Virus record (IMG/VR): IMGVR_UViG_2563367002_000001
Direction: 5' to 3' (one strand)
Length of the DNA stretch: 38,579 nucleotides
DNA from: a virus
Lineage: Duplodnaviria > Heunggongvirae > Uroviricota > Caudoviricetes
In this document: in pieces, positions 11,785-13,643 of the stretch
Layout of the letters: every line of letters starts with the position of its first letter
How positions within the stretch are numbered: position 1 is the first letter of the stretch
Made by a program: the position numbers and the translations under genes
Notes under the pieces: model-generated
What the model was told of the DNA's origin: nothing
The model's input: only the letters and a program-made list of their open reading frames with translations
Database searches by the model: none

Positions 11785-11808
11785 TATGCAATTGTTTACT
11801 AAAAGTTA

Positions 11809-11834
11809 TTAAAAATGGGGCGTGGAAACGCCCC
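11809..11834 (-). terminator. Rho-independent terminator for minus-strand transcripts (likely porin terminator)
   Basis: Hairpin GGGGCG-tggaaa-CGCCCC at 11817-11834. On the minus strand it is followed by ATTTTT (plus-strand AAAAAT at 11811-11816). Confidence 0.5.
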
Positions 11835-11921
11835 CAAAATAAAGGGTAATATATAACAGAAGGTTTATATAGTAAGAAGCAAGGTAGTGCTTCTAAAGGA
11901 AGTGGCTTGAGGGCTCCACTT

Positions 11922-11961
11922 ATATGTTGCGGAGGCAAAGCCTCCCGCAACATATCTTTTT
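11922..11961 (+). terminator. Rho-independent terminator for plus-strand transcripts downstream of Q
   Basis: Stem ATATGTTGCGG...CCGCAACATAT of about 11 bp plus an AGG/CCT extension, followed by CTTTTTCG at 11955-11962. Confidence 0.6.
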
Positions 11962-11972
11962 CGTAAGTCAGA

Positions 11973-13055
11973 TTAGAACTGATAAACCAGACCTACAGCG
12001 ACGATGTCGTCGGTATCAATACCAGCTGTTTTGGTAAACTTACTATCGTCAATTAAGTTGATTTTGTAATCAACAAAAGTGGACATGTTTTTATTAAAGT
12101 AGTAAGTAGCACCGACATCGACATACTTGACTAAGTCTCGGTCACCATGAACACCAAGGTCTTTACCTTTTGACTGAAGGTAAGCAACAGATGGACGCAG
12201 ACCGAAGTCAAACTGATATTGTGCTACTGCTTCAAAGTTTTGTGCTTTGTTTGCAATATGGTTATTACCAAAAACGGTCATATTCTGAGTTTCAGAATAT
12301 GTGGTAGCCAGATAGATATTGTTCGCATCATATTTCAGGCCTGCAGCCCATACTTCCGCATTTTTGCCGGAGGCATTGAATTTGCTCTTACCATAGGCGA
12401 CCTGACCGTCAGTGCGATCTGATTTAGCATAGGTTGCACCCACGCCGAATCCTTCATACTCATAAGTAGTGGAGAAACCGAAACCATCACCATTGGCTTC
12501 AGTTACGTCAGTGCGGTCATTTTTACCCTGATACTGAGCAGCAAAGTTCAGGCCATCGACCAGACCAAAGAAGTCGTTGTTACGATAAGTTGCAACACCA
12601 GTAGTGCGACCAGTCATGAACACATCTGTTTGGGTCCAGGTATCACCACCGAATTCTGGCAGAACGTCAGTCCACGCACCGATGTCGTATGCTACACCGT
12701 AGTTACGGCCGTAATCGATTGAGCCGTAATCACCAAATTTCAGGCCTGCAAATGCAAGACGGGTTTTGTCTTTGGAAGAACCTTGAGATTCAGCACGGTT
12801 GCCTTTGAATTCATATTCCCACTGACCGAAACCAGTCAGTTGATCGTTGATTTGGGTTTCACCTTTGAAGCCAAGACGGGCATAAGTAGTATCACCATCA
12901 TCTGCATCATTAGAGGAGAAGTAGTGCTTGGCATTAACTTTCCCGTATAGATCCAGCTTGTTACTGTCTTTATTATAAATTTCAGCTGCCTGAGCAGACA
13001 TCGCCATCAGTACTGATGCAGCTACAGCAGAAATTGCCACTGTTAATTTTTTCAT
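11973..13055 (-). CDS. nmpC: Outer-membrane general porin (OmpC/OmpF family; NmpC/Lc-like phage-borne porin), about 360 aa
   Basis: Signal peptide [23 protein letters not shown] followed by [16 protein letters not shown]..., ending in the C-terminal aromatic residue (...GLVYQF). The track's upstream start at 13115 is unlikely; ATG 13055 gives a canonical signal peptide. Confidence 0.9.
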
Positions 13056-13481
13056 TGTACGCCCTTTTTTTGAACTTTTATTAAAAAATGATGCCACTGC
13101 GCGATAAATATTCATCTAATCAATGTGATTATTTCAAGATGTAAGTTTTAGTTTCTCATTTAATTTGTGAAGTAGATCTCTATTTTTATCTGAACCTTTT
13201 CTATCTAATCCTATTCATGGCTCTTGTCTGAACAAAAATAAATCTATTAGCTAATTTATATTAATGGCACTTATTTATAAGTGCTCTATAATTCTTTAGC
13301 TTAATTTAAACAAACTAAAAATAACATCGGAAATTATTAACTGGTTATTTGTTGAAGTTTTCTTATGCATTTGTGGTGGTGTTTTGAACACTCGGTGGCA
13401 TTCTCACAAATATCATTTAGTAGTTTACGTACGTAAAAAATTGGTTATGCTGTTAAGAGTGGTTACTTCGTCACACAGCTT

Positions 13482-13516
13482 AAACCCGCCGTCGAGCGGG
13501 TTTTTCCATTTTTTGA
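13482..13516 (+). terminator. Rho-independent terminator upstream of the holin (candidate tR'-like late terminator)
   Basis: Hairpin AAACCCGC-cgtcga-GCGGGTTT followed by TTCCATTTTTT, about 130 nt upstream of the holin start. Confidence 0.55.
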
Positions 13517-13643
13517 GTCTCGATATTAGCTGATAACCCAATACCTGAGTTATTCACTGACTCCGAATCTGTTACGTTTCTGCCTTTATTGCGATACGTA
13601 GTATCCCCTTAATTTACACCCGCTTTGTCTGCGAGGTGGGGTT

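Follow-up and report, generated by a model that had tools for sequence, protein, structure and literature searches.

The window analyzed here, a 38,579-nt stretch of caudoviricete DNA (IMG/VR record IMGVR_UViG_2563367002_000001), derives from a lambdoid prophage in which the immunity, N and replication region is gone. Between its Q antiterminator gene and its S-R-Rz lysis genes lies a porin gene in the opposite orientation, in the gene order of K-12 DLP12 (rusA-ylcG-quuD-nmpC-essD-rrrD-rzpD-borD); beyond the endolysin gene come Rz/Rz1 and, in reverse orientation, a bor/iss gene. The original prediction, made from the letters alone, had described a porin gene convergent to Q, hairpins and an AT-rich upstream region, and all of these are present. 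Of its interpretation, the intact porin, the hairpins and the second of two promoter layouts hold; the opposed terminators and the TTGAAC late promoter do not, and the palindromic operator is unlikely. The features are as follows.

11401..11784, plus strand: Q antiterminator gene, quuD type (127 aa; PF06530 Phage_antitermQ, 1-118 of 118, E 6.7e-54)
11811..11972, minus strand: porin 3' UTR, homologue of the IpeX sRNA (~162 nt, porin stop codon to end of the terminator U-tract)
11811..11834, minus strand: intrinsic terminator of the porin/IpeX transcript (called by the scan; GGGGCGTTTCCACGCCCC followed by ATTTTT; dG -13.8 kcal/mol)
11922..11961, both strands: bulged 15-bp hairpin (IpeX stem-loop 1 when read on the minus strand; followed by CTTTTT when read on the plus strand)
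11973..13055, minus strand: NmpC/Lc-type general porin gene (360 aa from MKKLTV, 23-aa signal peptide, C-terminal YQF)
13100..13137, minus strand: predicted porin promoter PnmpC (-35 TTGAAA at 13137..13132, -10 GAATAT at 13113..13108)
13163..13183, no strand assigned: CRP-binding site (TTTGTGAAGTAGATCTCTATT; CAP site annotated in PA-2 J02580, mapped by alignment)
13260..13380, no strand assigned: AT-rich variable spacer between the divergent promoters (least conserved stretch; 57 distinct variants, 0.08-0.19 differing)
13424..13451, plus strand: late promoter pR' (-35 TTTACG, 16-bp spacer with palindrome TACGTACGTA, -10 TATGCT)
13452..13481, plus strand: initial transcribed region of pR' (GTTAAGAGTGGTTACTTCGTCACAC; invariant among the 57 variants)
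13482..13516, plus strand: tR' intrinsic terminator (called by the scan; hairpin 13482-13503 and T-tract to 13516)
13644..13859, plus strand: S21-type holin/antiholin gene essD, first late gene (PF04971 'Bacteriophage P21 holin S', E 2e-35)
13859..14356, plus strand: endolysin gene rrrD (Pfam Phage_lysozyme)

The porin gene and its promoter

The porin belongs to the OmpC family and is intact, as predicted. Because the whole Pfam Porin_1 domain is matched (PF00267, 1-337 of 337, E 1.9e-151; a full-length 16-strand porin domain) and the protein aligns over its full length with Lc of phage PA-2 (91% identity), the porin is not truncated; truncation relative to functional homologues, on which the original prediction had staked itself, was checked, and the ORF is full length. 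The coding sequence comprises 1083 nt, and the listed 380-aa ORF is an in-frame upstream extension of the 360-aa porin. Its 23-residue signal peptide, cleaved before AE, matches the one annotated in PA-2 lc (GenBank J02580), and the loop-3 PEFGGD motif and the final YQF can be read from the translation. The CFT073 annotation names the protein 'porin OmpC' (WP_000737271.1) and the Q gene quuD; RefSeq calls the porin gene 'ompC' and leaves IpeX and pR' unannotated.

The PA-2 locus shares its signal peptide and 3' UTR with the window, as well as the downstream lysis genes and the CRP site annotated there. PA-2 Lc, however, has 365 aa rather than 360, and substitutions and indels between the two porins cluster at residues ~181-235 and 262-267, segments that probably form surface loops. 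In K-12 DLP12, nmpC is a different allele (86% DNA identity) and is split by IS5, whereas the window porin is uninterrupted. Expression in lysogens is documented for prophage Perceval of LF82, which is 99-100% identical to the window in the module region and whose NmpC RNA lies 10-fold above local background (RNA-seq).

The porin 5' region is AT-rich, as first noted (27.9% G+C at 13056-13420, versus 43.5% in the porin coding sequence and 51.5% in the window). Flank variation was assessed in 80 loci retrieved from viral contigs with the porin protein, which is 100% identical in all of them; this set informs flank variation, not distant relatives. Two conserved islands, 13100-13199 and 13420-13560, enclose the variable spacer. 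The predicted PnmpC sits in the most conserved part of the upstream region (variation 0.004-0.013), with a start predicted at G13102 or G13100. This placement is consistent with K-12, where 5' RACE identified a 'G' as the PnmpC start and deletion of -199..-1 abolished activity (PMC11677980). PnmpC is also stated to be Crp-activated, and a terminator added between nmpC and quuD in K-12 had no effect (PMC11677980). The CRP site, whose center in the window precedes the predicted porin start by ~71 bp, is invariant across the window, K-12 and PA-2.

The spacer between Q and porin

The spacer between Q and the porin gene had been read as a pair of opposed terminators. Both hairpins are real, but they are not a gene-guarding pair, as the spacer is the porin 3' UTR, a homologue of IpeX. 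IpeX is a small RNA reported to act as an inhibitor of OmpC/OmpF expression, lowering both. The window copy occupies the same position, has about the same length and runs from the stop codon to a rho-independent terminator, with ~94% identity to ipeX of both K-12 and PA-2 (93.7% over the Q-porin spacer for PA-2; ~94% by BLAST and 97% mean column identity in the alignment for the K-12 quuD-nmpC spacer). Like IpeX it is strongly structured (MFE -54.1 kcal/mol, z -7.0, five stem-loops). Across 11 variants, 13 of 17 distinct substitutions fall at unpaired positions; the avoidance of stems, together with the strong structure, was counted in favor of the IpeX-homologue reading. An Rfam scan of 11300-13900 (E<=1) returned only two chance-level matches (sau-19 and Trp leader), and Rfam holds no family for IpeX. 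In K-12, IS5 separates IpeX from PnmpC, whereas in the window an intact porin gene still leads into the IpeX copy, so that its RNA would arise, as in PA-2, as a 3' UTR.

The minus-strand terminator, earlier placed near 11809-11834, is called by the scan at 11811-11834 (stem 11834..11817, z -3.0). The plus-strand terminator proposed at 11922-11961 does not survive as a separate element: it is the complement of the largest IpeX stem-loop, and the hairpin is part of the minus-strand MFE structure. Read on the plus strand, the hairpin (11922-11955, dG -21.9 kcal/mol, z -7.0) was missed by the scan because of a one-base bulge in its stem; a C/G difference in K-12 moves the bulge and keeps the stem. 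It may stop transcripts leaving Q. Terminator-like sites called by the scan were not enriched in 11300-13900 (3 vs 1.9 in shuffles).

Late promoter, tR' and competing layouts

Q is 81% identical over 120 aa to Q of the Stx2 prophage Sp5 and distantly matches the Q21 structures 6P18/6JNX. Its gene is accompanied, as in a Q cassette, by a sigma70 promoter with an intrinsic terminator within ~60 nt, upstream of the lysis genes. The second layout of the original prediction, with late promoter and tR' between porin and holin, is the one supported: both elements have their homologues just after Q in Stx phages, and the plus-strand terminator that the prediction noted upstream of the holin is tR'. 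The pR' sequence is homologous to that right after Q in Stx phages and PhiR49_2 and to that upstream of S in SfII, and is 98-100% conserved in all porin-carrying relatives having that segment. Its hexamers match the consensus at only 8/12 positions, which explains why the simple scan left it uncalled; transcription is predicted to start at A13458. In Sakai Sp5, exactly 258 nt separate the homologue (TTTACG-16-TATCAT) from the last T of the second terminator downstream, a geometry that fits the mapped transcript, as dRNA-seq and Term-seq give the same PR'-to-tR' distance of 258 nt (PMC7547250). In Sakai, Term-seq puts tR' at this second terminator; the window, unlike Sakai, has none, so the efficiency of its first hairpin is uncertain. 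That hairpin is located ~25-55 nt into the pR' transcript, and distant relatives carry a G+C-rich hairpin and T-run of different sequence at the same position.

The initial transcribed region of pR' is common to phages whose Q proteins are only 39-50% identical. By analogy with the Q21 model of pause function (10.1101/651190), it is a candidate sigma-dependent pause and Q-loading region. Candidate Q-binding/pause elements are the palindrome in the promoter spacer, which varies with Q type, and an invariant TACTTC at +7..+12; for Q21, a direct repeat has been published as the QBE (10.1101/651190). The late promoter does not immediately follow Q, as 1.64 kb separate the Q stop (11784) from pR' (13424); adjacency of the two is usual but mechanistically not required. 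The holin gene matches an entry with an S71/S68 dual-start annotation (OL657227). For DLP12, the lysis operon is reported to be under Q-type antiterminator control, and a -121..+650 fragment of the lysis regulatory region drives lux.

That the host has co-opted the lysis promoter between porin and holin as mainly a sigmaE (RpoE) promoter, in place of a classical sigma70 pR', is unlikely. The window does contain GAAC at 13386-13389, and the DLP12 essD promoter is reportedly used by sigmaE, as Rueggeberg is said to have described in 2015, which would modify the sigma70 picture. RpoE and Q are also listed as regulators of the DLP12 lysis operon in literature cited by PMC7918800. However, the motif is missing in K-12 (TTCAAT), the background of the RpoE work, no TCAAA-like -10 is seen by eye at the right spacing around TTGAAC, and the conserved block is a sigma70-type TTTACG-16-TATGCT homologous to the dRNA-seq-supported pR'. 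A sigmaE promoter around TTGAAC, with no properly spaced -10 by eye and a motif absent in K-12, was rejected. The TTGAAC originally proposed as the late-promoter -35 does occur, one base off at 13384-13389 and just past the right edge of the variable spacer, but no acceptable -10 follows, the scan makes no call, the hexamer is poorly conserved (TTCAAT in K-12), and pR' lies ~40 bp downstream. The promoter-like plus-strand site that the scan did call (ATGGCA-17-TATAAT, 13264-13292) was likewise dropped: its -35 is not conserved, and promoter-like sites in 11300-13900 are fewer than in shuffles (3 vs 6.6).

The palindrome GCACTTAT-TT-ATAAGTGC at 13267-13284, suggested earlier as a possible operator, is very improbable as a regulator of the porin or the late promoter. 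It is real and better than described, with perfect 8-bp arms and a hairpin more stable than in shuffles (z ~-4), and such repeats are uncommon in shuffled sequence: when the intergenic region is shuffled by dinucleotides, 2.8% of the shuffles contain at least two, the number observed, the second of the observed pair being taken to be tR'. Yet its lack of conservation makes an operator role unlikely: only 19 of the 80 related loci keep it intact, elsewhere one arm or the other changes without compensation, and it is broken in the Lc-expressing phage PA-2 and in K-12, where the left arm is changed. It also falls within the least conserved stretch of the upstream region and outside the -199..-1 segment whose deletion kills PnmpC activity.

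A late promoter right after Q (11785-11920), from which Q-modified polymerase would run antisense through the porin gene to the holin and switch porin off during lytic growth, can practically be dismissed: although pR' directly follows Q in most lambdoid phages and antisense read-through of a reverse-oriented immune gene by late transcripts is documented in phi80, the scan finds no plus-strand promoter-like site there, the DNA is porin 3' UTR that porin-less relatives lack, these relatives carry the homologue of window 13424-13505 immediately after Q, and conservation of the porin-holin pR' homologue reaches 98-100%.

With pR' and tR' between porin and holin, the lysogen would transcribe the porin from its own CRP-dependent promoter (~13100-13183) into an RNA of the 1083-nt coding sequence and the structured ~162-nt 3' UTR, ending at 11811-11834. 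The porin would enter the outer membrane, the IpeX part would, going by the literature, lower OmpC/OmpF, and the porin and phage-receptor repertoire of the lysogen would thereby be swapped, a change that had been anticipated and that equals the classical PA-2/Lc phenotype. At pR', sigma70 RNA polymerase would start near 13458 and, when Q is absent, stop at tR'. Q, made 1.6 kb upstream, would act in trans, loading on polymerase at pR' so that it reads through tR' into the S21-type holin, endolysin and Rz/Rz1 genes. Since pR' and tR' lie between porin and holin, late transcription would never cross the porin gene, leaving it insulated; the plus-strand hairpin at 11922-11961 probably also keeps Q transcripts from running antisense into it. 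In this scheme the identities, homologies, structures and conservation come from the present analysis, the activity and start of PnmpC, IpeX function and Q control of DLP12 lysis genes come from the literature, and we infer the exact start sites, pause and Q-binding elements and terminator efficiencies.

A known porin module and the slot between Q and pR'

We identify the region, with high confidence, as the NmpC/Lc porin "moron" carried by a lambdoid prophage of the DLP12/PA-2 type, a leftward self-contained unit between Q and pR'. It has its own terminator, a conserved promoter island with a CRP site and a G+C content unlike its flanks, and its expression in lysogens is known from the literature. 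A porin moron with an IpeX RNA tail before the lysis genes is real but already known, the arrangement having been in the literature since the 1980s as the qsr' region of DLP12 and as PA-2 lc. The K-12 qsr' region (quuD-nmpC-essD-rrrD-rzpD/rzoD-borD) shows identical gene order and orientation, with 86-100% identity segment by segment across quuD-nmpC-essD (Q 97%, Q-porin spacer ~94%, pR'/tR' block 100%, holin 98%; 95-97% mean column identity in the spacers), although 17 bp of the late leader (13581-13597) are missing there. The same arrangement occurs in plaque-forming phages, e.g. ev017, PhiR57_1 and mEp332. Equating the window with the CFT073 prophage throughout was rejected, as the two are collinear only over 9162-38577 and the left 9 kb differs.

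The 933W-type Stx Q-pR'-tR' cassette, source of the StxS sRNA, resembles the window in Q (81%) and in its homologous promoter, initial transcribed region and first hairpin. In Stx phages, by contrast, the end of Q and pR' overlap, and there is a second terminator 258 nt downstream, whereas the window has 1.64 kb of cargo between Q and pR', different last 7 Q codons and one terminator. The phi80 taiEcA 'noncontiguous operon' likewise pairs a reverse-oriented, lysogen-expressed accessory gene with a Q-controlled late region, but taiEcA lies downstream of the late promoter and is crossed antisense, whereas the window porin lies upstream of pR', uncrossed.

A gap between Q and pR' is present in 57 of 78 related loci, and relatives use this gap as a hot spot for cargo in reverse orientation, Kiwa and candidate defence genes among it.

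We tentatively propose, as a possibility more doubtful than probable, that in QuuD/Q933W-family lambdoids the Q-pR' slot serves generally as a hot spot for cargo expressed in the lysogen, almost always against Q, with porin-IpeX as its receptor-remodelling member, and that the palindrome in the pR' spacer may be a Q-binding element. The pattern behind this proposal (slot contents, orientation and a palindrome that varies with Q type) was observed in this analysis; besides porin, the cargo includes Kiwa, HNH, a KAP-NTPase (PDC-S20) and further candidate defence genes. With the cargo against Q, late transcription would never cross it.

The present analysis places the late promoter, assigns the terminators to their transcripts and discards the palindrome and TTGAAC, without opening a new question. 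At least 80% of the module is found in 2393 of 5426 complete E. coli genomes, nearly half, including Nissle 1917, CFT073 and ATCC 25922, whose prophages carry it with 100% identity. Because so common a module can alter outer-membrane permeability, antibiotic uptake and phage/colicin receptors, its correct recognition matters for annotation.

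A known porin module in a defective prophage

The porin gene opposite the antiterminator gene Q (quuD type) belongs to an already known moron upstream of the late promoter pR', made up of an NmpC/Lc-type prophage porin and IpeX, a small RNA of the porin 3' UTR. All structures named in the original prediction are present, exactly or within a few bases of where it placed them, and its interpretation of them is right in part. The surrounding features are:

3819-5071 and 7912-9164: an IS3-like (ISEc52-type) element in two copies, inverted relative to each other, 1253 nt, 99% complementary
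10816-15139: segment with rusA, ylcG, Q, porin, holin, endolysin, Rz/Rz1 and bor/iss
11401-11784, plus strand: Q antiterminator, 127 aa
11973-13055, minus strand: porin gene, 360 aa, opposite Q
13644-13859: S21-type holin, after the porin and followed by endolysin and Rz/Rz1
14846-15139, minus strand: bor/iss, a reverse-oriented serum-survival lipoprotein gene directly past the lysis cassette

Prophages of CFT073, Nissle 1917 and ATCC 25922 match positions 11300-13900 with 100% identity; 2393/5426 complete E. coli genomes and 36 sequenced phages, plaque-forming ones included, carry at least 80% of this region. Gene order and orientation are the same in DLP12, the cryptic prophage of K-12 (quuD-nmpC-essD-rrrD-rzpD-borD), where nmpC is interrupted by IS5, whereas the porin gene of the window is intact. 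Against K-12, both intergenic regions reach 95-97% mean column identity in the alignment, with BLAST segment identities of 84-100%, and the original lc record of phage PA-2 (J02580) is alignable throughout. The porin, described earlier as apparently intact and convergent to Q, is indeed intact, since it aligns with the whole of Pfam Porin_1 (E 1.9e-151) and is 91% identical to PA-2 Lc across its full length, without truncation and with differences grouped in two variable segments. RefSeq labels it 'ompC' (WP_000737271.1) and phage records NmpC or OmpD; the protein annotated 'ompC' is of the NmpC/Lc type. No examined record annotates IpeX or pR'.

The prophage is defective because the gam-to-ren segment between bet and a truncated ninB is missing, and with it N, cI, cro, cII, O and P. 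The IS3-like copies flank Ea22-like, exo and truncated bet, and the right copy adjoins the 5'-truncated ninB; strain C 691-04A differs in having a single copy and no intervening segment. Directly past the lysis cassette, an accessory gene (15620-15946, plus strand) encodes a 108-aa TonB C-terminal-domain protein; in an LF82 lysogen, the TonB fragment of the near-identical prophage Perceval was reported 8-fold above background. The major tail gene (25822-26592) is an intact 256-aa ORF, whereas that of the 99.8% identical CFT073 prophage is annotated as frameshifted.

Late promoter and terminator between porin and holin

Positions 13421-13505 resemble DNA directly after Q, or overlapping its end, in hundreds of Stx-phage records; similar DNA also precedes S in SfII and follows Q in PhiR49_2. 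The aligned block contains:

13424-13451: pR' (TTTACG, 16-bp spacer, TATGCT)
between pR' and the hairpin: an invariant initial transcribed sequence
13482-13516: a G+C-rich hairpin with a T-run

Sakai prophage Sp5, whose Q is 81% identical to that of the window, carries the homologous promoter TTTACG-16-TATCAT. Counted from a start 7 nt downstream of it, the final T of the strong terminator that follows is exactly 258 nt away, which equals the published distance between PR' and its terminator tR' by dRNA-seq and Term-seq (PMC7547250). Protein homology between the two Qs stops at codon 120 and DNA homology restarts at 13421, so that about 1.66 kb behaves, by this comparison, as an insertion between Q and the promoter. 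It spans a new C-terminal end of Q, IpeX, the porin and the AT-rich stretch upstream of the porin. In a set of 57 distinct porin-holin spacer variants, 13440-13560 was almost invariant and 13260-13380 most variable. The second most variable spot, 13581-13597 within the late leader, downstream of tR' and ahead of the holin start, holds a 17-bp indel, CTGCCTTTATTGCGATA, present in the window and PA-2 and absent from K-12 DLP12.

Two layouts had been proposed, with the late promoter either adjoining Q, sending transcripts antisense through the porin gene, or lying together with tR' between porin and holin. The promoter scan returned no plus-strand promoter-like site at 11785-11920, as the first would need. 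This empty interval, the pR' homology, the conservation of 13440-13560 and the DLP12 literature support the second: secondary literature (PMC7918800) places the DLP12 lysis operon under Q-type antiterminator control and has a regulatory-region fragment (-121 to +650) driving a reporter. A simple scan misses pR' because its hexamers match only 8/12 consensus positions. In DLP12, sigmaE reportedly contributes as well.

Other proposed elements of this spacer did not hold. TTGAAC, suggested as part of a -35/-10 pair, lies at 13384-13389, 40 bp upstream of the conserved pR', with no usable -10 and with TTCAAT as its K-12 equivalent. The palindrome suggested as an operator (13267-13284) has perfect 8-bp arms, but falls within the least conserved stretch and is intact in only 19/80 related loci, its arms altering singly and without compensation, K-12 and PA-2 among the cases.

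In Stx phages such as Sakai Sp5 (comparison locus L007, 768-795 vs 975-1002), two terminators follow pR' in tandem. The tR' published from Term-seq is the downstream one, at 258 nt from the start, which the window lacks; the upstream one, between +24 and +52, is homologous to the window's single predicted tR' hairpin. The published passages on tR' do not discuss this upstream terminator, and a small transcript of about 50 nt may have gone undetected.

Predicted porin promoter and IpeX homologue

As predicted, the porin upstream region is AT-rich (27.9% G+C vs 51.5% for the window). It includes a second conserved island (13100-13199), where TTGAAA-18-GAATAT on the porin strand is the predicted porin promoter, and to which the CRP site annotated in J02580 maps (13163-13183). 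Transcription would start at a G at 13102 or 13100, which would put the CRP site at about -71. By 5' RACE, nmpC transcription in K-12 starts at a G; deleting -199 to -1 abolishes activity of the promoter, which is stated to be activated by Crp (PMC11677980). Perceval is 99-100% identical to the window in the porin module, and in the LF82 lysogen transcription of its NmpC gene is 10-fold over the local background.

The 188-bp spacer between Q and the porin gene is the 3' UTR of the porin and an IpeX homologue. According to reviews, the 167-nt DLP12 RNA IpeX is transcribed from the phage porin promoter within the porin message and lowers OmpC and OmpF. Folded on the porin strand, the spacer forms five stem-loops (MFE -54.1 kcal/mol vs -31.5 +/- 3.2 in shuffles, z -7.0), and its porin-strand end is the minus-strand terminator, likewise called by the terminator scan. 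In 11 variants of this sequence, drawn from about 85 loci, 13/17 distinct changes fall at unpaired positions, with 53% of positions paired (binomial P about 0.012), and 2/4 changes at paired positions preserve pairing. The plus-strand terminator predicted at 11922-11961 is a real hairpin, but is the complement of the first, longest stem-loop of the IpeX homologue. Because it is stable on the plus strand (dG -21.9) and followed by five T, it may additionally stop transcripts coming out of Q. When a strong terminator was added to the nmpC-quuD interval of K-12, nothing changed, which the authors of that study read as a sign of intrinsic terminators already acting there (PMC11677980).

Cargo between Q and pR'

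The -35/-10 spacer of pR' contains a short palindrome (13427-13436, and homologous positions in comparison loci L004-L007 and L091-L210) whose symmetry is kept while its sequence varies by Q type: TACGTACGTA or TACGATCGTA where Q is at least 80% identical, GCGTACGC or GCGGTCCGC at 45-52% Q identity, and TTCGTTACGAA and GTGGAATTCCA in other loci. It is a candidate Q-binding element; the published Q21 element is a direct repeat (10.1101/651190).

A search of viral contigs with the invariant leader motif (loci L091-L210) gave 78 loci with a Q homologue upstream on the same strand. Q adjoins the promoter in 21/78 and lies 0.6-2.5 kb away in 57/78. Apart from the porin, genes of about 25 unrelated families occupy these gaps, almost all in the orientation opposite to Q. 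When 20 representative gap genes were tested against defence models, several matched known or candidate systems:

KwaA and KwaB (Kiwa)
PDC-S20 (KAP NTPase)
PDC-M68A (HNH nuclease)
PDC-S42 and PDC-M53A
PDC-S54, weak match, and an NYN protein, weak match

The gap between Q and pR' (11785-13420 in the window) is a cargo hot spot in phages sharing this late-promoter leader.
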